Source of the DNA: Thermoplasmatota archaeon
GTDB lineage: Archaea; Thermoplasmatota; Penumbrarchaeia; Penumbrarchaeales; Penumbrarchaeaceae
Reading direction: 5' to 3'
Assembly: GCA_046483845.1 (NCBI GenBank)
Contig: JAWOCK010000113.1
Location: 25,494 to 89,493 of the forward strand
DNA: 64,000 nucleotides
The notes below the pieces were generated by a model that searched no databases, was not told the DNA's origin, and saw only the letters and a list, made by a program, of their open reading frames with translations. Each line of letters opens with the position of its first letter. Position 1 is the first letter of the stretch. Below, piece after piece: positions 16,342-39,869 of this stretch. Made by a program: the position numbers and the translations under genes.

Positions 16342-16756
16342 TCAGATGTCATCTAATATTTTTATCAGATCTCCAGTGGAATACACATCAACTCCCATAA
16401 TGGATTTCAAAACCTTATCATTGGACCAGATACCTGCTTTGATATTCAAAGCCAAAGCTACATATTCAGCATCATCAGGATCTGGAGTTATCTTAATAGC
16501 TCTATCCCTGAAGGTTTTGAAATCGTCATATGGATAAAAAGAGATCCTTCGTTTCAGAATCTCCATGAACCTATCAAAATTCTTTTCTTGGTCGTTTAGA
16601 TTTATCAATAATCTCATCTTCGTGTTTTTCAAATTCTTCAAGAAGAAACTCAGGAGCATACAAATGGAAAATGTCCTTGAACAATAACTCTGCTGTCTTA
16701 TTGTCCTTTATGAGTGCTGCAAAAAGAACATTCGCATCGACTACGAGGTCCATCAC
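16342..16756 (-). pseudogene. PIN-domain (VapC-like) toxin split by a +1 frameshift
   Basis: First half MDLVVDANVLFAAL...KEF*; second half DRFMEIL...PDPDDAEYVALA...IWSND. Removing one T from GAA-TTT-TGA-TAG (16576-16579) restores one frame. Confidence 0.85.
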
Positions 16757-17482: not shown

Positions 17483-17680
17483 AGTGGGCCGACCCGATCT
17501 TCCCTTCAGGAAGATTGGGGCCAGTATCAGCTGATATCAGCAGACCCCAGACCTTGTGAAAATCCAATTATGGATGCTTATCTGGTGATTTTCACGGTCC
17601 GGGTCGGATCAGCTATAGAACAAATATTACCCACTCACAAATATAATTTGAATACGATAATGTTAGTGGGCCGACCCGGA
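17483..17680 (-). repeat. Two extra copies of the tRNA-Val 3' end (17665-17680, 16 nt; 17483-17496, 14 nt) with structured spacers
   Basis: + strand AGTGGGCCGACCCG(GA) is identical to 17821-17836. Confidence 0.9.
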
Positions 17681-17822
17681 CCTTCGGCGAAAAATGATCA
17701 AAACAGGCTTTCAACCGTTTTTCGCCTGGTCATCAATGTGACATCAATAACATCGGGTCGGAAGAATATGATGAAAAAACGATTCCCACTTTCTACGATT
17801 ACAGAATAATTAGAATCGAAAG

Positions 17823-17896
17823 TGGGCCGACCCGGATTTGAACCGGGGACCTCCGCCTTGTAAGGGCGACGTCATAACCAGCTAGACCATCGGCCC
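17823..17896 (-). tRNA. tRNA-Val(UAC), CCA not encoded
   Basis: GGGCCGA acceptor stem, anticodon arm TCGCC-CTTACAA-GGCGG, T arm CCCGG-TTCAAAT-CCGGG, discriminator A. Confidence 0.96.
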
Positions 17897-18023
17897 GGTC
17901 TATTATTGGCTCACCCTTCATCGACATTTGACATAAAACCTTTTCCTTGGAGCTGTCCCGATATCAAAGAAAATTACAAAAGCGAATATCCGATACACCC
18001 TATACCAAAGGTGTGTGAGATCA

Positions 18024-18986
18024 ATGACGAGACCCATGAAGAACATCCTGGTCACAGGATCGGCGGGACAGATCGGCTCCGAGCTGGTCATGGTCCTCAG
18101 GGAGAATTACGGCAATGATAACGTGGTGGCGGGGACCAACAGAACACCGCCCTCTGAAAGGATCAGGGAAACCGGACCCGTGGAGGCATGCAACATAGTT
18201 GATAAGGAACAGCTATATTCGGTGGTGGACGAATACGATATCGATACCATCTACAACATGGCAGCGATCCTCTCCGGCGTTGGAGAGCAGAAACCGCTAC
18301 TCGCATGGAAGGTGAACATGGACGGCTTCCACAACGTTCTGGAATGCGCAAGGGAAAAGGAGCTGGTCAGGGTCATGAACCCCTCTTCGATAGCCGCGTT
18401 CGGTCCCGAGACACCGAAGATCGACACTCCTCAGGAAACGGTGCTCAAGCCCAGGACGATGTATGGTGTCACCAAGGTGGCCGGGGAGCTCCTTGGTGAT
18501 TACTACTTCAGGAAGTTCGGAGTCGACGTAAGGGGTGTTAGATATCCCGGCATCATCTCCTCGGAGACCCTTCCGGGAGGGGGCACCACTGATTACGCAG
18601 TGGCAATATTCTACGATGCAATAGAGAAGAAAAAGTACGAGTGCTTCGTCAACGAGGACACGGTCCTTCCCATGATGTACATGCCCGATGCATTGAAGGG
18701 ACTGATCGACCTCGCCGAGGCCCCTGTGGAGAACCTCAAACACCACTGCGACTTCAACCTGGCATCAATGTCCTTCTCGGTCAAGGAGCTGGCGGACGAG
18801 ATAAGGAAGCACATTCCCGAGCTGGAGGTCACCTACAAGCCAGACTTCAGGCAGGAGATCGCGGATTCGTGGCCCCAGTCCATTGACGACTCCGCTGCCA
18901 GGAAGGAATGGGATTGGAAACCATCATACGATCTCTCCTCGATGACCGAGGACATGATAGAGAAGCTTTCAGCAAGACTTCTCTGA
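18024..18986 (+). CDS. L-threonine 3-dehydrogenase-like extended SDR (NAD-dependent epimerase family)
   Basis: TGSAGQIG, AAILSGVGE, PSSIAAFG, YGVTK, PGGGTTDYA, PMMYMPD. Confidence 0.88.
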   Translation: MTRPMKNILVTGSAGQIGSELVMVLRENYGNDNVVAGTNRTPPSERIRETGPVEACNIVDKEQLYSVVDEYDIDTIYNMAAILSGVGEQKPLLAWKVNMDGFHNVLECAREKELVRVMNPSSIAAFGPETPKIDTPQETVLKPRTMYGVTKVAGELLGDYYFRKFGVDVRGVRYPGIISSETLPGGGTTDYAVAIFYDAIEKKKYECFVNEDTVLPMMYMPDALKGLIDLAEAPVENLKHHCDFNLASMSFSVKELADEIRKHIPELEVTYKPDFRQEIADSWPQSIDDSAARKEWDWKPSYDLSSMTEDMIEKLSARLL

Positions 18987-19006
18987 TCGGGATAGATGAA
19001 GTTCGG
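18906..19006 (+). repeat. 101-bp direct repeat, copy 1 (3' end of the SDR gene plus 20 nt)
   Basis: Aligns ungapped with 19724-19824; 8 differences counted by eye. Confidence 0.92.
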
Positions 19007-19012
19007 TACATA

Positions 19013-19447
19013 CTATTGAGACTTCAGAGCCTCGAGGTATTCAATACCCTCCCTGAGGTCGATCGCTTTGTCCACCTTTGAGATCAGTTCTTTATCCAAT
19101 GTTATCAGAGGTGCATCAACGGAGGCGGCGCTTGCCGCATGGACAGCATCGTAGAAGGTCAATTCCTTGCTTTCCGCTATTGACAGAGCGGATAGTAACA
19201 GCTTATTGTCCATAGGAATTCTCTCGAGATGAAGTCCAAGGAATTTGTTCAAGAATTTCTTTCCGGTCCTCCCTTCCCTCTTCGAGAACTGAACAATGCA
19301 ATTACCAACTTCACTGTAGACAAGTGGAGATACCGCAAGAGATACTCCCTCTTCCCTGCACATCTCCATGAAACGGATCGCATTCTCACTCTCGTCCTCA
19401 TCGTGAAGTACAGGAACCAGAGCAGAGGAATCCATGACCATTTTCAT
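19013..19447 (-). CDS. vapC: VapC-family PIN toxin
   Basis: VMDSSALV, SEVGN, LTFYDAVH, LITLD. Confidence 0.9.
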   Translation of the reverse strand: MKMVMDSSALVPVLHDEDESENAIRFMEMCREEGVSLAVSPLVYSEVGNCIVQFSKREGRTGKKFLNKFLGLHLERIPMDNKLLLSALSIAESKELTFYDAVHAASAASVDAPLITLDKELISKVDKAIDLREGIEYLEALKSQ

Positions 19448-19659
19448 CGTGAATCACGGTCCTTCCTTATCATTTCGGTCCCTGTTACACCGCTCCTCTT
19501 GAACCTGTTCTTCTTGAACCATTCAAGGGACCTCCTTGACTGCTCAAGCCTTAATTGCTCATCGAGTACCTTCGAAAGGAATTCACCTGGTTTGTATCCC
19601 AGCTTTCTGATCCTTTCTATGGTCTCGTCATCCACCCTGATCGATACGACAGTGCTCAT
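19444..19659 (-). CDS. vapB: VapB-like antitoxin
   Basis: MSTVVSIRVDDET...EMIRKDRDSR; ATGA overlap with vapC; start ATG 19659. Confidence 0.82.
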   Translation of the reverse strand: MSTVVSIRVDDETIERIRKLGYKPGEFLSKVLDEQLRLEQSRRSLEWFKKNRFKRSGVTGTEMIRKDRDSR

Positions 19660-19723
19660 GTAAACACCTTGTATACACCACATTGATAATATAATAAACT
19701 TTCTGGACATGCAATCACTCCTC

Positions 19724-19824
19724 GAATGGGGTTGGGAGCCGTCATACGATCTCTCCTCGATGACCGAGGACATGATAGAGAGGCTTTCAGCAAGACTTCC
19801 CTGATCGAGATAGATAAAGTTCGG
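19724..19824 (+). repeat. 101-bp direct repeat, copy 2 (orphan SDR 3'-end fragment)
   Basis: Encodes EWGWEPSYDLSSMTEDMIERLSARLP*, against EWDWKPSYDLSSMTEDMIEKLSARLL* in the gene. Confidence 0.92.
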
Positions 19825-20125
19825 CTAAAAGGTTGTTCAGAAGTGTCTATCCCAAAACGGACTGCACCTGTATGACCAATAAACAGTCCTTCGTCCGTGG
19901 GATATCAACGAGAGTCATTACATCATTCTACAGCAGCGTACATATAGATACACAGTGGTCGATATTATCTTATGTTTTTTATGTCAAATAACTTTACTAT
20001 TTGGCTGGTATTAGAAAAGATTTAACAACCAATATGCTCTTACTGTCAATACAACATCCATAGGAATTGAAAAATGGGAGGACATGTGTTCTCGATCATT
20101 AAGTATGAATAGATACCAATAAAAA

Positions 20126-23100
20126 GTGATCCAGTTGAGGAAAAACAAGCGTGCTCGACTTGCGCAAACAGCACTCGAGCGAATAAAAGCCCATGAGCAT
20201 CTCTGCCTCATCTACGAGAGCCAGGAGGAATGGAAAGAGGCCATCATACCCTTCATCAGGATGGGGATCGAGCGTGATCAGAAATGCATCTACATAGTTG
20301 GTGAACATACCGCAGAAGAGCTCATATCTCACCTGGATGAGGGGGGGATAGATACTGATCAAGTAATAAAATCAGGCCAGCTCGTGATCCTGAACGGGGA
20401 CGATCCATCCACCAAGGACGATCCTGAGCTGATGATATCCCTTCTCAGGAAGGAAACGGACAAGGCCCTGACCGAGGGTTATACTGCCTTAAGGGTCACA
20501 GATGAGATGACATGGATCACAGAAGAAAGCGAAGGATCTAACAAATTATTCGAATACGAGAAAGAACTGAACCGGGATATCATTCCTTTCCATCCCTGTA
20601 CGGCGATATGCCAATACAATAGAAACAGGTTCGATCCGGAGGTCATCAGGGAAGTGATCATGACACATCCCAAGATCCTTCTCGGAGAGGACATATACGA
20701 CAATTTCTACTACATACCACCGGAAAATTTTCCAGGTCAGCCAAAAGCCGAGATCGAGGTTGGGAAATGGCTGAACATCGTCGAGAGGGAAAGGGCACTG
20801 AACGAGAGATACAGGCTGTTCCTCGAGGGCACAACGGATATGGCCTACCTCAAGGACGATCAGTTCAGACATATGATGGCGAACGGGGCACTGCTCAAAT
20901 TCTTCGGAAAGGATCTGGACCAGGTCATAGGCAGGACCGATCTCGATCTCCTCCCCCCCGACGCGGCCCGAAACTGCCGCTTCAGCGACAAGGAAGCCCT
21001 CGAAAAACAAAAGAAGATCAGAACACAAGAGGAGATCGACGGTCGATATTACGAGACGATCAAGTTCCCCGTGAACATAGGAAAGGACAGGCTCGGGGTC
21101 GGGGGATTGATACGAGATATCACCGACCATAAGCGGGCCGAGGAGGCTCTGCGCCGCGAGCATGATCTTCGTCAGCGTTATCTTGATACCACCCATACCA
21201 TCATGGTCGCCCTGAACGCAGAAGGCCGCATCACCATGATCAACCGTGCGGGTTGTGAACTGCTTGGTTACACCGAGGAAGAACTCATGGGAAAAGAATG
21301 GTTTGAGAACTTCCTCCCCAAACCAGAGGGGATGAAAAAGGATTACCCGATATTCCAGCGCATCATGGCTGGCGACCTGGCTTCCAACGAATATGTTGAA
21401 AACAGCGTCATCTGCAAGGACGGAACACTGCGCCGGATCGGATGGCACAATACACTTCTAAAGGACGATGATGGCGAGATTGTCGGTACCTTGGGTTTTG
21501 GCGAAGATATCACGGACCGCAAGCGGGCCCAGGAGGAACTGATCGCTTCTGAGACACGTTACCGCAGGCTCTTCGAATCCGCCAAGGATGGCATTCTGAT
21601 CCTCGATGCATCCAGCGGGGAGATATTGGATGTGAACCCTTTCATGACCGATATGCTTGGTTATTCTTATGAAGAGTTCACGGGAAAGCATCTGTGGGAG
21701 ATCGGGGTCTTCCAGAATATATTCGAGAATAAGGAGAAATTCCTGGAACTGAAAGAAAGAGGATATGTAAGATACAGCCATCTGCCTCTCGAAACGTCGG
21801 ATGGTAAAGGTATAGACGTAGAGTTCGTCAGCAATGTCTATGATGTGGATCGTTCCAAGGTCATCCAGTGCAATATCCGTGACATAACAGAACGGAAAAA
21901 GATGGAAAAGGAACTGGAGAACACCCTTTCCGAACTATCCGCCATACATCAGAACGCTCCCATCATCATGATGTTGGTCGATAATGAGAGAAAGGTGAAA
22001 AAGGTAAACAAAGCTGCAGCCGAGTTTGCCAAAAGATCACCTGAGGACATGATCGGATTGGTCGGGGGCGAGGCGCTGATGTGCCTGAACTCCCTGGATG
22101 ATCCCGAGGGGTGCGGTTTCGGGCCCCGATGCAAAGAGTGCCGCGTCAGGAATGCGGTCCTTGATACATTCGAGGATCGAAAGAACCGGACTGACATCGA
22201 GGCATGGCTTCCTTTCCCCATGGAAGAGGGCAGTGAGGAGAGATGTCTTGAGGTGTCCACTTCATTCTTGACATTGGATGGCCAGAAACGAGTTCTCTTA
22301 TGTGCTCATGACATAACAGACAAGAAGGAGGCCAATGAGGCTCTAAAAGCCAGCGAAGAGAGATTCAGACTGCTGGCCGAGAACACACTTGATCTGATAT
22401 GGCAGATGGATATGAACCTTCGGTTCACGTACGTCAATCCCGCCTCTGAATCATTGTTCGGTTACACTCCGGAAGAGTTCATCGGAACACACCTATCCGA
22501 TCACTGCGACACTTCGGAATTTGCCCGGGTGACAGAGATAATATTGGAAGGTCTGCAGAGCCCGGAGGAAGACGAGGGAACAGTGGTCGAGACGGTATTT
22601 CACCACAAGGATGGGAGACGCATCCCATCGGAGGTCCACGGGAAATTACTTCTTGATGAGCAAGGGCGCCCTGCTGCAATCCAAGGGACCACCAGAGATA
22701 TCTCTGATAGAAGATCAAAGGAAGATGAGATCAATGACCTCAACTCGTTCCTTCTTTCCATCCGGTATGTCAACCAGACCATTGTTAAGGAGTCGGATTT
22801 CGATAGGATCCTATCGGAGACCTGTAGGATCCTGACCAGGATCAAGGGATACATGGATGTTGCCATCGGATTCAGGGAGGAAAAAACCGGTTATATGGAA
22901 TCGAGGGCCCATATTGGTATGCATGAGAGAAAGCCATGGAGATATGTTCCCGAAAAGGATGGAGATACACCTCCATGTATCAAAGAGGTGATCCAAACCG
23001 GGTCGACCGTGATACTCGAACCATCAGACACCCTATGCTCGGAATGCGGATATTGCTCTCACAACATGGATCACAGATCGATCCACGTTCCCATCAGGAA

Positions 23101-24331
23101 CTTCGAAGGAGAACCCCAGGGCATCATCTCCGCCTACGTGGAATCCGGGAGGAAGCTCCATGACCAGGAGATGCCTCTATTCGAAGAGATAGCGGACGAT
23201 CTTTTCTTCGCTCACGAAAAGATCACATCCGAGAAAGAACTGATCCAGAGCGAGAAGAAATATCGAACCTTGATAGAGACAACCTCCGAAGGCTACTGGT
23301 TAGTGGATGAGGAGGGTATGACCCTTGAGGTCAATGATGCACTGTGCTCCATGCTGGGATATGACAAAGATGATATTATCGGTAAAAGCCCCTTGGATTT
23401 CATGGATGATGATAACAAAGAGATCTACCGGAAGATGTTCCGCAAAAGATCGGATTCAAAGGACAGGACCTATAATATCCAGCTCATATCCAAAAAGGGA
23501 GATGTCCGCGATGTCATGGTCAGTGCTACAACGTTTGAGGATTCGAAAGGCAGTCCCTCGGGCGTCTTCGCATTGATCACTGATATCTCTAAGCTGAAGC
23601 GTATCAATGACGAACTTGAAAGAGAGAAGAAAAAATCGGATACCTTCCTGGACCTGATCAGTCATGATATCGGGAACATACATCAGGGAATTCTCTTATC
23701 ACTATCCCTATTGGATATCGATCCGATATCCGATAAAATGAAACAGAGATCATTAGCCAACATTCGCAATCTCGCCAACAGATCGATGCATCTGGTCAAG
23801 AACGTGATAATCCTGACAAAGCTGGATTCCATGGACAAGGAACTGGGCGAGATCGATGTGCTGGAAATGATGGACAATGCCATTGAATCCTGTCGATCCG
23901 CGTTCCCGAAAAAGAAGATCCGATACGATACCGTTTTCGATCATGCACCGGTGTTGATCAAAGCGGAACCGGTGGTGGGTGAGGTGTTCTTCAATCTTTT
24001 CCACAACAGCATCAAGGTGCAACAGGACAAGGAACCCAGGATCGAGACCGAGGTCATAGTGGACAAAGAACACTCATGTGTGAGGATCCGTATCTCGGAT
24101 TGGGGACCGGGCATATCCGATGATCTGAAGGAGAAGTTGCTATATCGCACCCGGGCCCCTGACAAGAAGATGCATTCCGGAATAGGATTGTCGTTGGTGA
24201 GAGAACTGATGAACCGTTATCATGGCAGGGTCAGGATCCTGAACAGATCGAAGGATGAGCCCGACTCCGGAACCTGTTTCGAACTGACCTTCCCACTACC
24301 CGAAGAGATCGATCCTGTTCGTCAGGACTGA
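20126..24331 (+). CDS. Soluble sensor histidine kinase: MEDS, multiple PAS, GAF, PAS, HisKA/HATPase
   Basis: HLCLIYES and ICQYNRNRF (MEDS); repeated DIT.RK PAS ends; ISHDIGN H-box; NLFHNSIK, DWGPGI, GIGLSLV. Confidence 0.92.
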   Translation: MIQLRKNKRARLAQTALERIKAHEHLCLIYESQEEWKEAIIPFIRMGIERDQKCIYIVGEHTAEELISHLDEGGIDTDQVIKSGQLVILNGDDPSTKDDPELMISLLRKETDKALTEGYTALRVTDEMTWITEESEGSNKLFEYEKELNRDIIPFHPCTAICQYNRNRFDPEVIREVIMTHPKILLGEDIYDNFYYIPPENFPGQPKAEIEVGKWLNIVERERALNERYRLFLEGTTDMAYLKDDQFRHMMANGALLKFFGKDLDQVIGRTDLDLLPPDAARNCRFSDKEALEKQKKIRTQEEIDGRYYETIKFPVNIGKDRLGVGGLIRDITDHKRAEEALRREHDLRQRYLDTTHTIMVALNAEGRITMINRAGCELLGYTEEELMGKEWFENFLPKPEGMKKDYPIFQRIMAGDLASNEYVENSVICKDGTLRRIGWHNTLLKDDDGEIVGTLGFGEDITDRKRAQEELIASETRYRRLFESAKDGILILDASSGEILDVNPFMTDMLGYSYEEFTGKHLWEIGVFQNIFENKEKFLELKERGYVRYSHLPLETSDGKGIDVEFVSNVYDVDRSKVIQCNIRDITERKKMEKELENTLSELSAIHQNAPIIMMLVDNERKVKKVNKAAAEFAKRSPEDMIGLVGGEALMCLNSLDDPEGCGFGPRCKECRVRNAVLDTFEDRKNRTDIEAWLPFPMEEGSEERCLEVSTSFLTLDGQKRVLLCAHDITDKKEANEALKASEERFRLLAENTLDLIWQMDMNLRFTYVNPASESLFGYTPEEFIGTHLSDHCDTSEFARVTEIILEGLQSPEEDEGTVVETVFHHKDGRRIPSEVHGKLLLDEQGRPAAIQGTTRDISDRRSKEDEINDLNSFLLSIRYVNQTIVKESDFDRILSETCRILTRIKGYMDVAIGFREEKTGYMESRAHIGMHERKPWRYVPEKDGDTPPCIKEVIQTGSTVILEPSDTLCSECGYCSHNMDHRSIHVPIRNFEGEPQGIISAYVESGRKLHDQEMPLFEEIADDLFFAHEKITSEKELIQSEKKYRTLIETTSEGYWLVDEEGMTLEVNDALCSMLGYDKDDIIGKSPLDFMDDDNKEIYRKMFRKRSDSKDRTYNIQLISKKGDVRDVMVSATTFEDSKGSPSGVFALITDISKLKRINDELEREKKKSDTFLDLISHDIGNIHQGILLSLSLLDIDPISDKMKQRSLANIRNLANRSMHLVKNVIILTKLDSMDKELGEIDVLEMMDNAIESCRSAFPKKKIRYDTVFDHAPVLIKAEPVVGEVFFNLFHNSIKVQQDKEPRIETEVIVDKEHSCVRIRISDWGPGISDDLKEKLLYRTRAPDKKMHSGIGLSLVRELMNRYHGRVRILNRSKDEPDSGTCFELTFPLPEEIDPVRQD

Positions 24332-24336
24332 TGATG

Positions 24337-25380
24337 TCACAGGATCAAGGTAGCCAGGAACATCATAAGTACGAAGGCCCCCACACCAAGGAACATGGGA
24401 ATGGGGAGCCCGGGCAGGATCCCGCTGCTGTCCTTTCTGGTCAGACGATAGATCGTGTATGCGAACCCGATGAGTATCGCCACGACCACGGGAACGAAGA
24501 AGAAGGGGAGCATCCACCAGCCCTCGGTCCTCACGTAATCTGCGGAATAGAACATGGAGTGGGCCCCAAGGACGGAATAGAATACCAGGTCGCCTATCCC
24601 GAGCTGCCACGAACCTGCATCGTAGGTGAGGTTGTCGAAGGGGAACTCGTCGGAGTCATCACCCAGGGGATCCCATCTAGCCATGAGCCGGCCGTTCATA
24701 TCGAGCTCCACCATCTCCTTTATAGGGCCCTTGAAAACGGCATAGATGTCCCAGAGGGCAAGTCCTATCAGCAACGGTAGAACGGTCCACGTCGGAAGTA
24801 TCACCGCCATGAAGGCCCCCATCAGAGAGGATATGACGATCAGCGAACCGTTCCTCTCCTTTCTTGTGAAACCCCGGGACAGGACCATGGAGACCACGAC
24901 GTAGCCCACAAGAAGGCCTGCGATCATGAAACCCAGCAGGGACCCCATGGAATAGAGTTCCGGGATGGTGTAGAGCTCGAACTCCACAGGCTCCTTGACC
25001 CAGATGACGGACCAGACACGTTCGTATACTATCTCATTGAGCTTGTAGAGGAAGAAGGCGAGTATCACGCCTGTGGCGAAGGTGAGCATGCCCCTGAACA
25101 TCCTCTTCAACGTCCTTCTCTTGCCTTTCTTGATGATGTAGAGGATACCGAAACTGCCGACGATGGCAGGGACCAGGAACAGAAGAACATTGCCCAGACC
25201 AGCCGTTGCCTGCCCTGCCGTGCCTGACTCCTCCTCGGCGACGAACACCGCGGCCTCCACCTGGGTGGCCGAAAGCGTTGCGAAGAACGCCAGGGTGCTG
25301 GCCGCCATGATCACGATGAGTACGGGGAGAAAGAATAGAAACGCCCTCTTGGTGAGCTTACCCAGGTCCCTCATTTCCAT
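24337..25380 (-). CDS. Presenilin-family (GxGD) intramembrane aspartyl protease
   Basis: Polytopic; ALWDIYAVF, LGIGDL, PGLP (PAL-like); start probably ATG 25380 or 25374. Confidence 0.88.
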   Translation of the reverse strand: MEMRDLGKLTKRAFLFFLPVLIVIMAASTLAFFATLSATQVEAAVFVAEEESGTAGQATAGLGNVLLFLVPAIVGSFGILYIIKKGKRRTLKRMFRGMLTFATGVILAFFLYKLNEIVYERVWSVIWVKEPVEFELYTIPELYSMGSLLGFMIAGLLVGYVVVSMVLSRGFTRKERNGSLIVISSLMGAFMAVILPTWTVLPLLIGLALWDIYAVFKGPIKEMVELDMNGRLMARWDPLGDDSDEFPFDNLTYDAGSWQLGIGDLVFYSVLGAHSMFYSADYVRTEGWWMLPFFFVPVVVAILIGFAYTIYRLTRKDSSGILPGLPIPMFLGVGAFVLMMFLATLIL

Positions 25381-25579
25381 GCAGCCGGTAATCGACTTCT
25401 CCGAATTAAAGCTCACCCCTGTTGTTTTTTTGGAACCTGTGGAAATTTTTCCAACACATGGTTGAATTCTATTCAAATGAAGGCTCATGAGGGTTTTTTT
25501 CCAAAATCTTTTCATATCGAAGTGGTCGAGCAGGATATCCGGGTAGACGATAGGGGATCCATATCCTTAACCCTCGGAT

Positions 25580-26533: not shown

Positions 26534-26596
26534 CAGCAAATTAAAGTAGGGTTCCCTTTATATGCCTAACGTTCGATAGACCGAAGGTTCGGGTTG

Positions 26597-28012: not shown

Positions 28013-28088
28013 GTCCGAGGACCGTCATCTATTCATATAAAGAGAAATATCCCAATTAAAACCCCCGGAAAAGGACGGTCCGTTCACC

Positions 28089-28736: not shown

Positions 28737-28746
28737 GGTTGAACAC

Positions 28747-30888: not shown

Positions 30889-30930
30889 TCCCCGAGCAAA
30901 TACCAAATACAAGAGCAATAATTCCAAGGC

Positions 30931-32001: not shown

Positions 32002-32349
32002 GGTCCTGTCGATGACATCCATCATCTCCCCGTACCACTCATCCACCATCTCCCTGAGGATCTCCTGGACCTTTTCAGGGGACAGCGCCCGGTATGTGTG
32101 GAATATCCCACCGCCGCGGCGATTGTGGAGTTCCTTTTCAACGATGCCGCTGGAGACAAGATTTGTGAGGCTCCTGTATGCGGTGGACCTGTCCCTGGAG
32201 ATCCGCTCGCCTATCTCCTGGGGTGTTCCGGCTCCGCTGTCAACGAGCTCCTTGTAGACGTTAACGTCAAGTGGTGAGAGGTCGAAGAAGCATCTCAATG
32301 CGTTATCACAGTTGGCCCCTGCGCCCCTTGGAAATTCAAGCTTTGTCAT
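31981..32349 (-). CDS. TrmB-like HTH transcriptional regulator
   Basis: CFFDLSPLD..VY, RDRSTAYRSL..LV..GIV, GG..HTY. Confidence 0.82.
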   Translation of the reverse strand: MTKLEFPRGAGANCDNALRCFFDLSPLDVNVYKELVDSGAGTPQEIGERISRDRSTAYRSLTNLVSSGIVEKELHNRRGGGIFHTYRALSPEKVQEILREMVDEWYGEMMDVIDRTSSDLRG

Positions 32350-32460
32350 AAAGGTCCTCCGGGATCTCTTTTCACAATTTGTGGAAGAAGATCAAGGACA
32401 CCAAATAGTTTTCGCCTGTTCGCTATCTCTGCACAAACGTTTAATACACTGGATGCATGG

Positions 32461-32811
32461 ATGATGATGTTGGTCAAGATGACAGGTACCGATGACAGGA
32501 TAGTGGACCTCAGCGAGGATGGATTCGACGGTTTTGTCAAGGAGAACAAGGTGGTCCTGGTGGATCTCTGGGCAGGGTGGTGCATGCCCTGCACCATGCA
32601 GGGCAAGATGATAGAGCAGAAACTGGACCAAATGCCCGCCGGGGCAAAGGTGGCAAAGGTCAACGTCGACGAGAACCCCGGCATAGCAAGGAAGTTCAAT
32701 GTCAGGGGCATACCCCAGATGTACCTTCTGGTAAACGGAGAGACCGTCAAGGGCTGGACCGGGGTAACCCCCGCGGAGGTCATCTTCTCCGAGATGGAAA
32801 AGCACCTCTAG
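32461..32811 (+). CDS. trxA: Thioredoxin
   Basis: VDLWAGWCMPC, KVNVDENP, VRGIP; start may be ATG 32479. Confidence 0.9.
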   Translation: MMMLVKMTGTDDRIVDLSEDGFDGFVKENKVVLVDLWAGWCMPCTMQGKMIEQKLDQMPAGAKVAKVNVDENPGIARKFNVRGIPQMYLLVNGETVKGWTGVTPAEVIFSEMEKHL

Positions 32812-33926
32812 ATCTCCAGCACCGAACAGTCCCTGAGGTATGGTGAGTTGAGATCGGTCATCTCGCCCACGCTCCTGTCCGGTATCGGAAGGAGCCTTGC
32901 CGAAAGAGGCTTTCTCCACTTGTGAGAAAGAGATGACATGTCCAGTATGGCGCTTGCCAGTTTAGGGACCGGAGTGCTGCCCGGAACGGGGACCGCGTCG
33001 AGACCTGTCCCGCAGACGGATGAGTAAAGAAGAAGGTTCTGGACGCCGTAGGAGCCTTTATCCGCTCCGCGTCCCAGCCCTTCGTCCTCCAGCACCGGAA
33101 GCATCAGTCCCGAATAACCGCACCGGGGAGCCTCTACATTATCTATGGCCCTGGTCAGTTCCGAGCAGGCCGAGAGCGTACCCGTGGTGCCAAAAGGGGA
33201 CCCGATCATGTTCTCCACGGCGAGAGCGATAGAACAGGCGGGCTCGAGGGCGGGGGCAAGTGACAGGTCAATACCCTTGAAATGGGGTGTTCCTTCCAGT
33301 TCCCTGATGATGTGCTCGCTATCGTTCTGGAGCAGATGGGTGAGCATCTTTCCGGATTCATTGAGACTGCTGGCCCTTTCCGACGACCTCATGACCAGAT
33401 CGCCGTTCTCGAGGGCAGCAGTGATCGATGGCGGGCCCCGAGAATGATAGGCAGCGGGAAAGAACGGTATATCCTGGGGACAACATGCTATGGACGCGAA
33501 CATGAAGTTCTTGGAACCGTCCCTTGCGATCCTCGATATGTCCCTCACGGCCCTGGCTGCCGCCAGTGAGTTTTCGGGTAGAACCCCCTCTCCGGTGGCA
33601 ACAACGGCGGAGCAGCAGGTCCGGGAGCTTTTCTCTATCATCTCCGGGACCATGCCTATCTGCTGCGGGTCCCTGCATGGCCCCACGGAGACGAAATCGA
33701 TGCCGTTCATCCCTGCAAGGTCCTCAAGATCGAGCACCAGTGACAGTAATCCGTCACCTTGTACGGACCTCCACAGATCCGTGCTCACCCTTAATGTCTG
33801 GACCTCCACACCGGCCCTCTCCAGTATCTCCCTGTCCCTGTGAAGGACCATGGAGATCTCCTGGAAGGTCCCTTTTGTGAATATTTCCCCCGGACCGATT
33901 CCCGCTGTCAGGGACCTTACTCTCAT
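32808..33926 (-). CDS. DUF711 (UPF0210) family protein
   Basis: VQTLRVS, IPFFPAAYH, GIDLSLAP, GYSGLMLPVLED, SVCGTGLDAVP. Confidence 0.85.
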   Translation of the reverse strand: MRVRSLTAGIGPGEIFTKGTFQEISMVLHRDREILERAGVEVQTLRVSTDLWRSVQGDGLLSLVLDLEDLAGMNGIDFVSVGPCRDPQQIGMVPEMIEKSSRTCCSAVVATGEGVLPENSLAAARAVRDISRIARDGSKNFMFASIACCPQDIPFFPAAYHSRGPPSITAALENGDLVMRSSERASSLNESGKMLTHLLQNDSEHIIRELEGTPHFKGIDLSLAPALEPACSIALAVENMIGSPFGTTGTLSACSELTRAIDNVEAPRCGYSGLMLPVLEDEGLGRGADKGSYGVQNLLLYSSVCGTGLDAVPVPGSTPVPKLASAILDMSSLSHKWRKPLSARLLPIPDRSVGEMTDLNSPYLRDCSVLEI

Positions 33927-33975
33927 AAGGAGGGAATGGAAAAGGTTCGACTAAAGCATTTTCGATAAAAGGCGT

Positions 33976-34464
33976 TCAATATTCCCAGATGGAGACCGTG
34001 GAGCCATGATCGATATTGTTTGAGAAGGAGAGTCCTTTGTTCATCTCTATGACGTATCTGCATTCCTCCTCACTGGAATATATCTCAAGCTGGTCCTCCG
34101 GGACCCCGTCCCCGGGATCCGCCTGCTCCACCTTGATGACATTGAAATCAATATCGACAAAGACTATGTCCAGGGGAATTGAGGTGTTCTTCATCCATAT
34201 GTCCACCACCCGGGGGACCTCATAATAGAACAGCATACCCCTGTCCCTGGGGAGCTCCTTTCGGTCCATCAGACCCTTCTCCCTCTCCTCCCTGGTATCG
34301 GCTATCTCACAGTCGATGGAGAGCACCAGCTGATCATCCGTGTAGAAGTTGACCTGTGCCAGCCCGCTCTTGTCCTCCGTCTCATCATCTCCGAGACAGG
34401 CGGAAAGAGGGGATATGAGAATTATCAGAACGAAGGCCGATCTTGTATCCATCCTGCTCACCAT
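33976..34464 (-). CDS. DUF192-family exported protein
   Basis: EIADT..ERE.GLMDR, GMLF, WMKNTSIPLDIVF, YVIEMNKG; start uncertain (34464 or 34452). Confidence 0.88.
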   Translation of the reverse strand: MVSRMDTRSAFVLIILISPLSACLGDDETEDKSGLAQVNFYTDDQLVLSIDCEIADTREEREKGLMDRKELPRDRGMLFYYEVPRVVDIWMKNTSIPLDIVFVDIDFNVIKVEQADPGDGVPEDQLEIYSSEEECRYVIEMNKGLSFSNNIDHGSTVSIWEY

Positions 34465-34617
34465 GACGGTTTTTGGTCTCTTTTTCAACATATTCAGGAG
34501 GGGATATATAATGATGTTTCCTGCTCATTTCAACCTTTATCCTAAAGATAATAAAGACCGTCAGATGAAATGATCGGCGTACCGGTCAGAGCGGGAGGCC
34601 TGTCGGAAGAGGGAGAG

Positions 34618-34639
34618 GGGGGATGTTCGTACATCCCCC
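34618..34639 (-). terminator. GC-rich hairpin just downstream of fprA
   Basis: GGGGGATGT-tcgt-ACATCCCCC; followed by a pyrimidine run but no clear U tract. Confidence 0.4.
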
Positions 34640-34651
34640 GACATTTAGCTT

Positions 34652-35848
34652 TCAGCAGGAGAGCTGTTTTATCTCCTCGGCCATTTTCCTTGCCAACTCG
34701 TCCAACTGTTCAAGCTGTTCTTCCGTTGCGGCACCCATGGCCTCCACCACGGGGTCCAACTTCCTGCAGAAGGAACTCTCCGCGAACTCGTTGAGCCCCT
34801 TCACACCACCGCCGCCCCAGCCGCAGGAACCGAACACACCTATCACATGGTTCTTGATCCTGGACTTGGAGAGGAAGTGTACGAAAGCGTCCACAGGAGG
34901 GAATATCCCTGTATTGTACGTGGGGGTCCCGATCACGAGTCCCCTGTACTTCCAGGCCTCGTTCACGAGGTATGACATATGGGTCTTCGAAGCATCCAGG
35001 ACGCGGATCTTCTCCACACCTTCCTCCGCCAACGTCCGTGCTATCCTGTCTGCCATCTTCTTGGTATTGCCGTACATGGAGCCGTAGATGATCACAACAC
35101 CTTCTTCTGCATCCATTGATGAGAGCCTGTCATAATAATCGATGATATATCCCGGGTCCTCTCTCCAGATCGGACCGTGGGTAGGGCAGACGATATCGAT
35201 ATCCAGACCGGAAAGCTTCCTCAGGGCTGCCTGGACCATGGGGGAATATTTCGCCACGATATTGGTGTAGTACCTGCTGATCTCGTCCTCGAAGAACTCC
35301 AGGTTGAGCTCATCATCGAAGATACCTCCATCCAATGTGCCGAAACCTCCGAAAGCGTCCCCCGAGAAGAGTATCCTGTCCTTGGTATCGTAGGTCATCA
35401 TGGTCTCCGGCCAGTGGACCATTGGGGTCATATGGAACCTGAGCTTCCTGGAACCGAGGTCTATCTCATCTTCGTCATCGATGACATGCACGTTCTTGGT
35501 GATACCATAGAAGTTCTCGAGGAACTTCGCGGTCTTCCTGTTCCCGACGATCTTGATGTCGGGAAAGACATCCAGGAGTGCTGTAATAGAGCCCGAATGA
35601 TCGGGTTCCATGTGGTTGATGACAAGGTAGTCTATCCTGTCCCCTGCAAGCTTCTTTATCTTGTCGAGATACGGAGAGGTCACCGTGAACTTCACCGTAT
35701 CGATCAGGGCTATCCTCTCATCCTTTATGACATAAGCATTGTATGAAACCCCATGAGGCAGGGGCCACAGGGACTCAAAGAGATGGGTCTCCCTATCATT
35801 GATCCCGACCCAGTAGACGTCTTCATTTATTGGAATGGGCTTGTCCAT
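34652..35848 (-). CDS. fprA: Flavodiiron protein (FprA, O2/NO reductase)
   Basis: NHMEPDHSG, HWPETM, SGDAFG, PTHGPIW, flavodoxin motif YGSMYGNT. Confidence 0.95.
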   Translation of the reverse strand: MDKPIPINEDVYWVGINDRETHLFESLWPLPHGVSYNAYVIKDERIALIDTVKFTVTSPYLDKIKKLAGDRIDYLVINHMEPDHSGSITALLDVFPDIKIVGNRKTAKFLENFYGITKNVHVIDDEDEIDLGSRKLRFHMTPMVHWPETMMTYDTKDRILFSGDAFGGFGTLDGGIFDDELNLEFFEDEISRYYTNIVAKYSPMVQAALRKLSGLDIDIVCPTHGPIWREDPGYIIDYYDRLSSMDAEEGVVIIYGSMYGNTKKMADRIARTLAEEGVEKIRVLDASKTHMSYLVNEAWKYRGLVIGTPTYNTGIFPPVDAFVHFLSKSRIKNHVIGVFGSCGWGGGGVKGLNEFAESSFCRKLDPVVEAMGAATEEQLEQLDELARKMAEEIKQLSC

Positions 35849-36053
35849 TTTCAGCTCTCCTTCTGGTTATGGGAGAAAAATATTCATATTTAAGGATTGA
35901 GCATTCATTGTATGTTCGAAGATGCTGCAGACCAAAGACGGAAGTCTCTCTTTTGTATCGGTTGTTATCGACTATAAGATCATACGGACCACCCCGTAGC
36001 GGAAATCCTTAATAACAAGGATTTCATTGAGCGCCAAAAAGAGGCGGTTCCAA

Positions 36054-36224
36054 ATGCTTCAAAAAGAAAATAGGTGCACTTCCTGCGGAGTTCCCATAGA
36101 GGCTCCCAAATCCGTCAAGTTCAGATGCCCCAAATGCTTCGAGGCCGATATAATCAGATGCGGCCAGTGCAGGGACCAATCTGCAAAGTATATATGTCCT
36201 GGCTGCGGTTTCCAGGGACCTTGA
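36054..36224 (+). CDS. Small Zn-ribbon protein (DUF1610/HVO_2753-like)
   Basis: Four CxxC pairs ending CPGCGFQGP; conserved position upstream of aEF-1beta. Confidence 0.88.
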   Translation: MLQKENRCTSCGVPIEAPKSVKFRCPKCFEADIIRCGQCRDQSAKYICPGCGFQGP

Positions 36225-36236
36225 GGGGTGAACATA

Positions 36237-36503
36237 ATGGGAGATGTCCTCATAAGGTACAAGATAATGCCCACCGGTCCGGACGTGGACCTGGAAGAGG
36301 TGTCCGAAAAGTTCGCGAACTACGTTCCGGACCACGGGCGTGTTTCCAGCTCCGAGGTCAAACCCGCGTTCTTCGGGCTGAAAATGCTCGAATGGGGTGT
36401 TGTCCTGGACGACAAGAAGGGTGGAGGAGAGGAGCTCGAGAAGAAGCTCAACGAGACAGAGGGCGTCCAGTCAGTGGAGGTCCTGGAGATGGGACTTCTG
36501 TAG
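36237..36503 (+). CDS. ef1b: Translation elongation factor aEF-1beta
   Basis: MGDVLIRYKIMP, PAFFGLK, EGVQSVEV. Confidence 0.92.
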   Translation: MGDVLIRYKIMPTGPDVDLEEVSEKFANYVPDHGRVSSSEVKPAFFGLKMLEWGVVLDDKKGGGEELEKKLNETEGVQSVEVLEMGLL

Positions 36504-36510
36504 GTAGAAC

Positions 36511-36870
36511 ATGTTCGTGAAAGGCAAGGTACCTGTGAACCCCACGGAGGACCCGGAGAAGGTCCGGACCTGTATAACCAATATATTCCCGGATGCGGAA
36601 CCGGTCCGTTGTGATCATCTACTTGAATTTACAACGGACTCATTGGATGCCTTCGTGAACAAGGTCACCGACCAAAAGATCAGGAATACATCGATCATGG
36701 TACTGGAGTCCGGCCTGCACGACGACAGCACCGTTTTTTCCCTGAATAAGCAGGCCTGTGCCGTAGAGCGGGTCAACTTCACCGACCAGGGAACCCTGGG
36801 TGTTGTGAGAATAGAGGTGAAAGAGGGTGCCAAGGAACTAATTGATATGCTGGATCCGGACCCTGAATAG
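36511..36870 (+). CDS. UPF0201-family putative RNA-binding protein
   Basis: VNPTEDPEKV, QKIRNT, LNKQAC, GTLG. Confidence 0.8.
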   Translation: MFVKGKVPVNPTEDPEKVRTCITNIFPDAEPVRCDHLLEFTTDSLDAFVNKVTDQKIRNTSIMVLESGLHDDSTVFSLNKQACAVERVNFTDQGTLGVVRIEVKEGAKELIDMLDPDPE

Positions 36871-36920
36871 GACAGGATTGTTCAACACCTCTTATATACC
36901 TTCGAGAACGATCTTACCCC

Positions 36921-38645
36921 ATGGAGTACTGGAAGTGCCCTGCCCGTATACCCCTGCTGTTGATTCCAGCGGCAGTCATATTCCTGCTGTTTGTGGTCTC
37001 CTCTGACGGGGGAGCCGTATCCACGGCAGTCATTGATATCGAGCAGGATTCCATCCGGATCGATGTTTCCGGAAGATCCCACGCTGTGGAGAGCGTCGAT
37101 GTAACGGTCAGGTCCACCTCCGCGCGAAATGTCATCCTTGATGTGTCCTACGATCTTGTGGCTCCTCCCACATGGTCAGTGGACGGTCCCGGGAAGCTCT
37201 TCATGGAGCCGCTCTCCAGGAAAAATTTCCAGGTGGACATCATAGTTCCTCCCGGGGAGCTCGCGGAACTCGAAGGAGAGATGACCATATCGGCTTCGGT
37301 GGAAGGGGATCCCGGGATGGATGTGGGCTCGGATTCCGTATCCATACGAATAAAGGAGTTCCGCAGGATCGTTCCCCTTGTGGATGACGATTATATATCG
37401 GACCTTCCCCCGCAGGGGGAGCTCGAACTCAAGATGGAGAACCTGGGCAACGTGGAGACCCGTTTCCTTCTCCTTGAGATGAACGGACCGAATACAATGC
37501 CCGGTGCGGGTGATGGCATGGTACTGGCTCCTGGTGAGATAGGTGCCTTCACCCTTGAATATTCACTTGATGAGACCGCCGGGGAGCAGACAATGGAGCT
37601 TTCCTCCTATCTTTCGGATGGGACCGTTCAGGAGAATTTTCTCTCCCTGAGGTTCATAAGGGACGGGGATCTCTTCCATCTCTTGTTCAGAAATGGCCCT
37701 TTCCTTATCATCTCACCGACCATCGACCCCGATGATGATCGGATATCCGTCTTTTCATTGGATGGTGATCTTGAAAATATCGGTCTCGAGATCGTGGACG
37801 GGCCCCCGGAAGCCTACATTGAGATGGGGGCCGGACCGGACCTCGAGAATCTGGACAGAAAGGAGATCTCCTTCCGGGCCGGGGGTTTTACCGGGGCGGA
37901 GGTCCTGAAGGTCCGTGCCTATGGTTTCAGCAAAGATGGCAGGGTATATTCCAATACCATTTTCGTTACGGTCAGGTCGTCGGGCGGGTCCGGGGCCCCT
38001 TTTATATCCACCCGAGCTGCAGTTGCCGGGGGAAGCACCGTAGCGGCCGTGACACTGACGGCGGGCACGGCAGCCTATCTCTACTCCGCTTCGGAGGTCT
38101 TCCGCTACAAGTGGCTTCTACTTGCCCTCGTTCCTCTTTATTCCATGACCAAAGGGGAGAAAATACTGGACCATTTCTTCCGCGGGCGGCTCTTCGAGCA
38201 CATCAGGGAGAATCCCGGTGTGACGTTCACTGCCTTGAAGGAACATTTCGATGTTAACAACGGGACCCTGACATACCACCTGCACAGGCTCGAGAGGGAG
38301 GAGTTGATAACCTACCGCAATCTCGGCAAGTACAAGATGTTCTACGCTGAGGGTATGAGGATCCGTGGATGCGAGGTGGTGATATCACCCTTGGATAGGG
38401 AGATGCTGGGTATGATCTCGGATAATCCTGGAATGACGACAAAACAGGTGATCACCTCAATGAAGGGGATAAGGTCCCAGCGGACGATCTCAAGGCATAT
38501 CAAACAGCTGGAGAGAAAAGGATTCCTCGTTGTTGAAAGAACCCACGGAGCACGTAGACTGTTCGTCTCCGAGGATATGGAAAGGGTCCTGATGCCGCAT
38601 CGAGGGGTCATGGAGGCAGTGGATGTCATAGGGAGCAGGGGATAA
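36921..38645 (+). CDS. Membrane-tethered regulator: extracellular Ig-like region, TM segment, cytoplasmic tandem winged-helix domains
   Basis: Signal peptide; NLGNVET Ig-like motif; PLYS...LDHFFRGRLFEHIRENPG...NGTLTYHLHRLERE; second wHTH SQRTISRHIKQLE. Confidence 0.78.
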   Translation: MEYWKCPARIPLLLIPAAVIFLLFVVSSDGGAVSTAVIDIEQDSIRIDVSGRSHAVESVDVTVRSTSARNVILDVSYDLVAPPTWSVDGPGKLFMEPLSRKNFQVDIIVPPGELAELEGEMTISASVEGDPGMDVGSDSVSIRIKEFRRIVPLVDDDYISDLPPQGELELKMENLGNVETRFLLLEMNGPNTMPGAGDGMVLAPGEIGAFTLEYSLDETAGEQTMELSSYLSDGTVQENFLSLRFIRDGDLFHLLFRNGPFLIISPTIDPDDDRISVFSLDGDLENIGLEIVDGPPEAYIEMGAGPDLENLDRKEISFRAGGFTGAEVLKVRAYGFSKDGRVYSNTIFVTVRSSGGSGAPFISTRAAVAGGSTVAAVTLTAGTAAYLYSASEVFRYKWLLLALVPLYSMTKGEKILDHFFRGRLFEHIRENPGVTFTALKEHFDVNNGTLTYHLHRLEREELITYRNLGKYKMFYAEGMRIRGCEVVISPLDREMLGMISDNPGMTTKQVITSMKGIRSQRTISRHIKQLERKGFLVVERTHGARRLFVSEDMERVLMPHRGVMEAVDVIGSRG

Positions 38646-38683
38646 AGCCAGGACCAAAACGTTCCATCTGTTTTCATGATAAC

Positions 38684-38691
38684 TTTAAATA
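38684..38691 (+). promoter_or_regulatory. TATA box of tRNA-Asn
   Basis: TTTAAATA about 35-40 nt upstream of the mature 5' end. Confidence 0.55.
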
Positions 38692-38724
38692 ACATTTCAT
38701 TATATTCCCGGCTACCCAAACGAC

Positions 38725-38801
38725 GCCGCAGTAGCTTAGCAGGTTAGAGCGTACGGCTGTTAACCGTAAGGTCGTCGGTTCGAATCCGCCCTGCGGCGCC
38801 A
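38725..38801 (+). tRNA. tRNA-Asn(GUU), CCA encoded
   Basis: GCCGCAG/CTGCGGC acceptor stem, anticodon arm TACGG-CTGTTAA-CCGTA, T loop TTCGAAT, G discriminator. Confidence 0.96.
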
Positions 38802-39090
38802 ATAATTATTTTACCATCAAGCCAGGGCGGTCGAACTTGTTCCTGGATGTTTAAGAAGAGATTATCTTAAAAACTTAACATCCAGGCCAGATAAGAACGG
38901 AGTTCTTATTAAGGCGAATCCGCCCTGCGGCGCCATGTTTCTAATTTTCTTCTCATTAAATGAAATATATGGCCCGGAGGGTGGATTCGAACTTGTTCCT
39001 TGATGGAAAGTACACAATATCCAAAGCTTTTCATCAAGGCCAGCAAAATCTTGAAAAGATTTTGCGAGGCGAATCCGCCCTGCGGCGCCA
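38802..39090 (+). repeat. Two extra exact 21-nt copies of the tRNA-Asn 3' end (38915-38935, 39070-39090) with structured spacers
   Basis: CGAATCCGCCCTGCGGCGCCA is identical to 38781-38801; periods are 134 and 155 nt. Confidence 0.95.
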
Positions 39091-39809: not shown

Positions 39810-39869
39810 TGAAGTCACCTTATCCAACAGAGCTTATACGTTCACCTTTTTAACGTTTGTGCATAATAC

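Follow-up and report, generated by a model that had tools for sequence, protein, structure and literature searches.

Structured repeat units with terminal tRNA 3'-end copies behind tRNA genes of a Thermoplasmatota archaeon

What are the folded repeats that follow a tRNA gene and end, each of them, in a copy of that tRNA's own 3' end? The question is raised by a stretch of 64,000 nucleotides (nt) from a Thermoplasmatota archaeon (contig JAWOCK010000113.1, positions 25,494 to 89,493 of the forward strand), referred to here as the window, in which a tRNA-Val and a tRNA-Asn gene are each trailed by a short array of such units. A reading made from the letters alone, which we call the sequence-only reading, had proposed that one fold is adapted to whichever tRNA it follows, either as an element or cassette acted on in trans or as RNAs cut from the tRNA transcript. 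We find that units of this kind are tied to tRNA 3' ends throughout the genome and in several families of its class, that they have a common ground plan and not one fold, and that their hairpins are maintained by compensatory substitutions.

Anatomy and distribution of the units

In what follows, X denotes a direct copy of the tRNA 3' end and X' an inverted copy. Read on the tRNA strand, a unit consists of an AT-rich leader, often a hairpin, which directly follows the previous X, then X', two or more hairpins and a terminal X, which begins to match the tRNA within the T-loop or at its end. In the predicted fold X' is paired with X, and the helix so formed closes a three-way junction. Sequence reading and a repeat finder bear out that both tRNAs in the window are trailed by two units, of 134 to 182 nt (Table 1), and that all four hold an inverted tRNA-end copy, which is split in both Val units and degenerate in Asn unit 1. 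Direct reading recovers two further shared parts that had been proposed, a module GRCC(A)-hairpin-RAGGY in four of the four units and a ..GATG/CAT.. stem in three. Val unit 1 has in order an AT-rich leader hairpin, a split X' with a 23-nt insert between its two parts that is conserved in matches to the Val-type pattern described below, two hairpins and the terminal X. The repeat finder gives 16 of 16 identities with the tRNA-Val 3' end for the first copy (17665-17680, 100%) and 14 of 16 for the second (17483-17498, 88%), and homologues of Val unit 2 lie behind tRNA-Ile and tRNA-Val(GAC) of the same genome. Asn unit 1 is made up of a degenerate X' (38822-38836, inverted repeat I7), hairpin A (38842-38886), hairpin B and a terminal X, and Asn unit 2 of a leader, an X' with an inverted T-arm (38970-38992), hairpin A (38998-39039), hairpin B (39040-39069) and a terminal X, the repeat finder reporting inverted repeats I3, I5 and I9 there. 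Both Asn X copies match the tRNA over 21 nt (CGAATCC...GCCA), starting inside the T-loop. No cloverleaf was called in the units, the only calls by ARAGORN and Rfam RF00005 in the window being the two tRNAs, and no Rfam family other than tRNA matches positions 17000-39500 at E <= 1, an outcome that leaves the sequence-only reading standing on this point.

Units of this sort fall into several families. In the commonest of these, type A, X' holds the whole inverted T-arm (GGGATTYGAACC), an 'anti-T-arm', and the anchors GGATTYGAACC and TCRAATCC are invariant. A covariance model, R1, was built from 46 type-A units at other loci and without Asn unit 2; it matches that unit clearly and Asn unit 1 weakly (scores in Table 1) and gives no match on either Val unit, so that the Asn and Val units are to be placed in different families. 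The Val-type or 'split X'' pattern has 21 matches, in 11 of the 37 genomes of the class and in four genera of one family, f1, with none for its control, and in the window's own genome (G000) such units follow Val, Ile and Pro tRNAs, whose 3' ends are similar. With several families in existence, and the two arrays of the window divided between them, the idea of one single fold has to be given up. The same applies to the idea that every unit inverts the acceptor strand: the acceptor-strand complement in X' is present in the genus of G000 and in genus g6, and absent in G004, G014, G036 and family f2, so that several genera and family f2 carry the inverted T-arm only and the acceptor part of X is unpaired there. 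In distant families, represented by G022 and G030, X includes the complete T-arm and a long T-run follows every X. Readings of the units in terms of K-turns, C/D boxes, H/ACA or bulge-helix-bulge motifs were dropped, the motifs not being conserved between units by eye. The module GRCC(A)-hairpin-RAGGY can be written more fully as CC-A-GCNAAATC...GATTTNGC-GA-GG, with a 1x2 internal loop (window 39040-39069); it recurs across several unit families, also in units of about 230 nt that lack X', and stands behind many arrays of G000 (contigs C4, C12, C21, C38, C70, C74, C88 and C105).

Table 1. Positions of the two tRNA genes, their trailing units and the tRNA-end copies in the window
Feature	Position	Strand	Basis
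tRNA-Val(TAC), anchor of array 1	17822-17896	minus	ARAGORN; Rfam RF00005, 67.6 bits
Val unit 1, 156 nt	17666-17821	minus	repeat finding and sequence reading
X' of Val unit 1	AGTGGG 17785-17790 and CCGACCCG 17754-17761	minus	inverted repeat I3
X copy 1 of tRNA-Val 3' end (TCCGGGTCGGCCCAC)	17666-17680	minus	repeat family D1
Val unit 2, 182 nt, other subfamily than Val unit 1, 3-4 hairpins	17484-17665	minus	
X' of Val unit 2	17630-17635 and 17596-17607	minus	inverted repeat I2: 12 nt, 100% complementary
X copy 2 of tRNA-Val 3' end, slightly decayed	17484-17498	minus	repeat family D1
tRNA-Asn(GTT), CCA encoded, anchor of array 2	38725-38801	plus	ARAGORN; Rfam, 68.4 bits
Asn unit 1, 134 nt, weak type-A member	38802-38935	plus	R1, 13.8 bits, E = 0.066
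X copy 1 of tRNA-Asn 3' end	38915-38935	plus	repeat family D1
Asn unit 2, 155 nt, clear type-A member	38936-39090	plus	R1, 51.4 bits, E = 2.5e-11
X copy 2 of tRNA-Asn 3' end	39070-39090	plus	repeat family D1

The genome to which the window belongs (120 contigs, 2.85 Mb, 96.7% complete) yields 41 ARAGORN tRNA calls, two of which look spurious. When the last 16 nt of each tRNA were searched for with at most 2 mismatches, one to three copies were found within 800 nt downstream of 25 of the 41 tRNAs and none upstream of any (0/41); the copies are spaced 112-185 nt apart, save for one case of 390 nt at tRNA-Val GAC. Extraction with 14-nt probes gave 41 units behind 26 tRNAs. Since unit starts are visible by eye at tRNAs scored negative (Thr-GGT, both Gln, Glu-CTC, Pro-GGG and Ser-TGA), the real share of unit-bearing tRNAs is higher than 25 of 41; tRNA-His and tRNA-Phe are without units, and a gene apparently follows each of them immediately. 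The sequence-only reading had expected a family tied to tRNA 3' ends, and this is what the genome contains, the tRNA-matching parts of the units varying with the tRNA.

A BLAST comparison of the 41 units with the whole genome produced 52 merged regions. About two thirds of them lie downstream of a tRNA at a distance of no more than roughly 450 nt; of the others most sit at contig ends, and only four or five are internal sites distant from any tRNA. Three of these internal sites start at or adjoin a tRNA-end copy, while C4:1559 is a bare fragment of leader plus X'; dispersal to many unrelated sites, as would be shown by miniature inverted-repeat transposable elements (MITEs), palindrome-associated transposable elements (PATEs) or repetitive extragenic palindromes (REPs), was not seen in this comparison. 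There are also arrays without a tRNA body (C5:16570-16930, C31:12440-12617 and C96:53015-53295), which begin with or adjoin bare Ala, Met or Ile tRNA 3' ends and have their nearest tRNA 2.8-7.5 kb away. Unit-like sequence remote from tRNAs sits mostly at contig ends, which indicates that the assembly breaks in arrays, and the arrays seem to be a cause both of assembly breaks and of missing tRNAs in such metagenome-assembled genomes (MAGs). Many contigs of G000 start or end in unit-like sequence, among them C8, C18, C41, C42, C65, C70 and C103.

Related genomes were expected to carry the units as well, and they do. Downstream copies were found at 14 of 19 tRNA-Val loci of related genomes and upstream copies at none (0/19); some of the negative loci are cut by contig ends, and one of them, L004, has copies by eye. 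For a wider search we used a type-A pattern that asks only for an inverted T-arm and, at a distance of 50-140 nt, a direct T-loop, and not for the tRNA itself. It has 11 matches in G000 and is present in 25 of the 37 genomes of the class (19/23 in f1, 2/2 in f2, 1/1 in f4, 1/2 in f8 and 1/1 in f3, this last a single match that is probably spurious), is absent from the f5, f6, f7 and f9 genomes, and in its reversed form, used as a control, matches nowhere in any genome. At 60 loci from 14 genomes that were examined around such matches, a tRNA lies upstream on the same strand, inside the sequence retrieved, for 62 of 79 matches; 55 of the 62 end in the last 12 nt of their own tRNA with at most 1 mismatch, and first units begin 15-76 nt past the tRNA. 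The unit plan is kept across at least four families of the class. Among 401 sampled genomes of the phylum, those outside the class gave single matches that resemble antisense tRNA genes beside another tRNA and were not counted as units, with the exception of G054; this member of another family of the phylum has four unit-like type-A matches (contigs C1, C8 and C11), which suggests a patchy wider distribution. A stricter pattern, run on one genome for each of 185,579 species, found 31 stretches, all in MAGs of Thermoplasmatota, Thermoplasmata or Thermoplasmatales. At one locus, L120 (G030:C84), a tRNA-Glu gene with an apparent long intron, for which ARAGORN run without intron search gave no call, is followed by two units, the direct repeat of which takes in the entire leader together with X.

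Selection on the fold and the strand that folds

Both arrays of the window are far more stable than dinucleotide shuffles of themselves, with z = -9.9 for Asn (0/200 shuffles as stable) and z = -6.2 for Val (0/100), and 86 type-A unit cores have a mean z of -4.6. Two long hairpins, of 15.0 and 11.7 bp on average, are present in 83 of the 86 distinct cores, and both are highly varied (75 and 71 distinct strand sequences). At nearly every stem position each of the four Watson-Crick pairs is found among the units, and when strands of different units are set against each other, complementarity is only 46-51%. Covariation was scored on 70 model matches (69 distinct rows) aligned to the covariance model, since alignment with MAFFT alone left the hairpins out of register. 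In this alignment, which is fitted to the model and hence favours the model's structure, 96.2% of cells are paired, against 78.5% in column shuffles, and the covariation score is 0.489 against 0.155, neither value being reached in 500 shuffles (0/500 in each case). Sliding the partners by 1-3 columns reduces the score to at most 0.113, and all nine modelled pairs of hairpin A show double-sided changes. The slid-partner controls, together with the independent test of strand complementarity, argue that the signal is real; the significant covariation that had been called for is present, and the hairpins are maintained by compensatory substitutions. The T-loop pair of the closing helix is C:G in 34 units, U:A in 30 and U:G in 3, from which it follows that X' tracks the T-loop variant of its cognate tRNA. 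A G-G mismatch recurs near the base of hairpin A (CTGG.../...GCAG, for example at L167 and L171) and makes up 32 of 98 isolated stem mismatches; it may be a site of protein binding or tertiary contact.

Which strand carries the fold was judged from isolated mismatches in stems that had been set by Watson-Crick pairs only, a test that superseded an earlier one based on minimum-free-energy folds. Read on the sense strand of the tRNA, mismatches of the type-A cores are of G.U type in 25 cases and of A.C type in 5 (p = 3e-4), those of the 41 units of G000 in 15 and 2 (p = 0.002) and those of its non-type-A units in 10 and 2, counts that pool related, non-independent sequences, so that the p-values overstate independence. 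The excess of G.U-type mismatches points to selection of the fold on the tRNA-sense strand, as RNA or as sense single-stranded DNA. In the window the sense fold is the more stable one in four of four units, with 22 G.U pairs against 5; the predicted energies are -49.2 against -42.5 kcal/mol for Val unit 1 (G.U pairs 8 and 1), -61.1 against -56.9 kcal/mol for Val unit 2 and -66.0 against -54.1 kcal/mol for Asn unit 2.

Comparison with known systems

The closest parallel is found in E. coli K-12, where three tandem 178-nt units follow straight after tRNA-Tyr (tyrV) on the tRNA strand. Each of them closes with 19 nt copied from the tRNA 3' end (at +159, +337 and +515, without a mismatch in the 19), and the identity begins, as in the archaeal X, inside the T-loop. 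The sequence-only reading had set the archaeal units apart from these tyrT repeats, a contrast that fails, for each E. coli unit also holds an exact 10-nt inverted copy, in this case of the junction between T-stem and acceptor (a match of at least 10 nt arose in 3 of 1000 shuffles), which in the predicted fold is base-paired to the terminal copy, so that a structure of several hairpins is closed just as in the window units. The annotated small RNA RttR, of 171 nt, starts 7 nt past the tRNA and ends exactly with the X copy of unit 1; the Rfam family of this rtT RNA is named RtT. There are also differences. The E. coli case concerns one operon and one tRNA, whereas in the archaea at least 25 of 41 tRNAs and most genomes of an order are involved; several archaeal families invert the whole T-arm, unlike E. 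coli; and tpr, a small protein gene annotated in E. coli, overlaps the unit there, while no such frame was noted in the archaeal units. No homology to the RttR family was detected, R1 reaching no more than 9.1 bits at the E. coli locus, and that on the wrong strand, and positions 17000-39500 of the window having no match to the family in Rfam. The archaeal and E. coli units have a common plan and no detectable shared ancestry.

Duplications at integrase attachment (att) sites likewise leave, downstream of an intact tRNA, a direct repeat that runs from the T-loop region to the 3' end. Unlike such scars, the units are spaced at 110-200 nt, have conserved folded content, a matched inverted copy and neither cargo nor integrase; as many as three or four copies can follow one tRNA, and most tRNAs of the genome have them. 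REP and BIME (bacterial interspersed mosaic element) sequences, PATEs derived from IS200/IS605 elements and attC sites are, like the units, short imperfect palindromes kept by structure and most alike within a genome, and in attC and IS200/IS605 one particular strand folds, as it does in the tRNA-trailing units; these, unlike REPs, PATEs and attC, are anchored to tRNA 3' ends and have termini matched to their target. A Y1/HUH transposase was not found and there is one tyrosine recombinase only, an integron-type integrase not having been specifically sought. In plant genes for joint tRNA and small nucleolar RNA (tRNA-snoRNA), in mascRNA and in mitochondrial t-elements, a small RNA is joined to a tRNA or tRNA-like helix through which tRNA-processing enzymes can set its ends. 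Ends defined by tRNA processing might, by analogy, apply to the archaeal units too, although here, unlike in those systems, the strands of the helix are a duplicate of the adjacent tRNA's end and the complement of that duplicate, and the helix can be blunt. Searches of the literature, at the level of titles and abstracts, found no description of such units in archaea, and it appears that structured units ending in a tRNA's own 3' end were previously known from the single E. coli operon (tyrT/RttR) only.

Explanations for the units

The reading that we prefer, and to which we would give about an even chance, is that the units are sense-strand RNA modules of the tRNA trailer which are multiplied and exchanged by recombination at the tRNA-end copies; by analogy they may be regarded as the archaeal, genome-wide counterpart of the tyrT/RttR repeats. 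Read-through from the tRNA promoter would transcribe the units, which after cleavage at the tRNA 3' end would persist as folded trailer RNAs, and further cuts at internal X copies are conceivable, RttR ending at just such a copy. A strict motif for the B recognition element and TATA box (BRE/TATA) is present in none of the 41 unit leaders of G000, against 14 of 38 regions upstream of tRNAs and 9% of shuffled leaders, and since the leaders are without the tRNA-promoter motif, a sense transcript is most simply explained by read-through. Consistent with this, a contig of an RNA library extends from within tRNA-Asn across unit 1 and enters the following gene; the RNA and DNA sequencing runs were compared as contigs, which carry no strand, end or level of RNA. 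In RNA run X7 no contig crosses 38771-39066, and DNA run X1 gave only short pieces of 90-95% likeness. As for the part that the modules might play, we favour a role in cis, in which they would affect how the adjacent tRNA precursor folds or matures, because X' can pair either with the 3' half of the tRNA itself or with a downstream X. Of the two mechanisms that had been offered for the window, RNAs cut from the tRNA transcript fit better than a cassette acted on in trans, given that the wobble bias lies on the sense strand, the leaders are promoterless and no candidate enzyme was found.

Turnover of the units is fast, and evidence on it comes from several arrays. In RNA library X6, one contig (depth 69) passes directly from 38911 to 39067 and thereby skips 155 nt, exactly Asn unit 2, at a joint with 26 shared bases, whereas DNA run X3, from another study, has both Asn units (a loose end of X3 at 38781 is due to a short contig that fits two places); the skip means either that populations differ here in copy number or that the stretch was deleted at the RNA level. 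Between the congeners G019 and G020 the tRNA-Ser(GCT) arrays differ by whole units, that of G020 having the form A-B-A, where A is X plus a 33-nt leader, and ending in a decayed X'. Unit number thus changes through gain or loss of blocks bounded by repeats of X, with or without the leader. In G019, near-identical cores stand behind Ile, Ser, Leu-TAG and Met tRNAs, the ends of which differ much. More generally, cores from the same genome behind different tRNA ends have a mean identity of 0.64 (236 pairs), and in 15 of these pairs the cores are at least 0.80 identical while the X parts reach only 0.37; cores from different genera behind the same tRNA end average 0.54 (28 pairs, 4% of which reach 0.80). 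The higher identity within genomes than between genera implies that cores are homogenised or spread within genomes while ends remain specific to their tRNA, and the boundary between core and end coincides with the T-loop anchors. On the preferred reading, arrays would grow and shrink via recombination or slippage between X copies, the invariant T-loop-derived anchors on either side of the core, together with similar stems, would permit its exchange between arrays by gene conversion, and the tRNA-specific ends would stay in place, kept matched through selection for the closing helix.

A number of points weigh against an RNA module, in addition to the pooling of related sequences in the strand counts. 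The wobble bias fits folded sense-strand DNA equally well, and the first strand test, on minimum-free-energy folds, was nearly symmetric, the sense fold being the more stable one in 47 of 68 units and G.U pairs numbering 138 against 127. The RNA contigs being strandless, the cover of the Asn units could stem from the antisense 3' end of a convergent, highly covered gene at 39153-39827. In G022 and G030 the T-run after each X should terminate much of the tRNA transcript before it enters a unit. The closing helix of Asn unit 2 takes in the CCA as well and is thus blunt, in contrast to a standard acceptor mimic, which would have a free 3' tail. Recombination alone does not explain how units first reached some 30 tRNAs, and where the acceptor part of X is unpaired the need for the tRNA's own end is unexplained, two difficulties which are shared by the cassette explanation discussed next.

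The main rival, in our view less probable, is that the units are instead non-autonomous mobile DNA cassettes, similar to MITEs or attC sites, which are moved in trans at the tRNA segment from T-loop to 3' end by the single Xer-type tyrosine recombinase or by an unrecognised enzyme; their hairpins would then be a recombination site in single-stranded DNA of one strand and any transcription would be incidental. Integrases that use tRNA attachment sites likewise have an identity segment that starts at the T-loop, which is where the identity of X begins, and elements that recombine as folded single strands would be expected to show the same one-strand wobble bias. Whole units are gained and lost between direct repeats of X plus leader, near-identical cores occur behind different tRNAs of one genome while orthologous tRNAs elsewhere carry other cores, arrays without a tRNA body exist and contigs often break in arrays, all of which would suit a cassette. 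Against this stands the outcome of the searches for machinery. The whole assembly has one tyrosine recombinase gene (Xer-type, a 274-aa frame) and no SSV-type integrase, serine recombinase or Cas1 gene, so that routes through such integrases or through casposon- or CRISPR-like insertion were rejected, as was an IS200/IS605 or TnpB route, the Y1 transposase PF01797 having no match and TnpB PF07282 only a match below the cut-off; no transposase was found in a search that did not cover the DDE and IS110-type families. A reverse-transcriptase route, considered in view of the resemblance of X' to a primer-binding site, was set aside because the presence of the enzyme does not track the units: G000 has a single such gene (C75:10576-11214, L161, a 442-aa frame), and the enzyme occurs in 10 of the 37 genomes of the class, in 5 of 23 in f1 and in neither of the two f2 genomes, though f2 is full of units. 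A virus or plasmid as vehicle was considered too, and the stricter unit pattern turned up nowhere among 2.9 million viral contigs. Nor do the units carry terminal inverted repeats accompanied by a short duplication of the target, and a crossover inside the T-loop with a non-cognate element would leave the tRNA with a 3' end that is not its own, contrary to what the arrays show.

A more far-reaching idea, which we consider unlikely, is that the units form a host-level layer of tRNA biology in this archaeal class, each cognate RNA module, built of an anti-T-arm and of a T-arm plus acceptor strand, acting on its own tRNA. If this were so, a unit could be a cis switch in which X' pairs with the tRNA 3' half or with the decoy X and thereby gates folding and 3' maturation, or alternatively the arrays could be a reservoir of cognate 3' segments with which an archaeal RNA ligase would repair or trans-join damaged tRNAs, and the rtT repeats of E. 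coli would be the lone bacterial example of the same principle.

It is improbable that each unit is an independent small-RNA gene, a 'mini tRNA-like gene' with its promoter in the leader and its terminator after X. The T-runs after every X in G022 and G030, the A/T-rich boxes that lie 15-25 nt before X' in f2, G022 and G030, and the solo arrays remote from tRNA genes would agree with such genes; the BRE/TATA counts given above do not, and a T-run of at least 5 within 20 nt after X, at the unit start, is found in only 6 of the 41 units of G000. Passive debris, that is integration scars or decayed slippage duplicates of tRNA genes free of selection, is the least probable explanation of all and strongly disfavoured by the covariation, for although integration classically leaves direct repeats of tRNA 3' ends behind, as are present here, and although the type-A X' reads on the opposite strand like a tRNA variable loop plus T-arm, which makes an origin from tRNA pieces plausible, the units measure 110-200 nt without cargo or integrase, their stems show the compensatory changes and four Watson-Crick pair types described above, their plan persists between families of the class, and a strand-specific wobble bias is not expected of neutral DNA.

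Whichever explanation applies, the units are unusual in their scale, since they stand behind the majority of the tRNAs in a genome and occur in the majority of the order's sampled genomes, in the matching of isotype, which extends to an anti-T-arm, and in the clear evidence of selection on their fold. They provide hundreds of natural variants with which the function of a unit and its acquisition of a cognate tRNA end can be addressed, and they show that a large family of structured elements can reside in tRNA trailers and yet be missed by an Rfam scan of the window and by a tRNA finder. In practical terms, the arrays are a cause of assembly breaks and of unannotated 'intergenic' sequence in these MAGs.

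The surroundings of the two arrays in the window are ordinary, with flanking genes that encode, for example, an epimerase, a sensor kinase, a helix-turn-helix (HTH) protein and a thioredoxin-like protein, and the earlier observation that no integrase or nuclease gene adjoins the arrays stands. No listed frame of at least 80 aa lies wholly inside either array, so neither cargo nor an integrase was found between the repeats. A protein of the window has as its closest named relative one from a MAG called 'Thermoplasmatota archaeon', at 87% identity. The Val array ends about 0.8 kb away from a PIN-domain protein gene (16342-16659, minus strand), and on the other side a gene for a 1401-aa MEDS/PAS/GAF histidine kinase (20126-24331, plus strand) is situated about 2.2 kb beyond tRNA-Val, neither gene having an evident link to the units.

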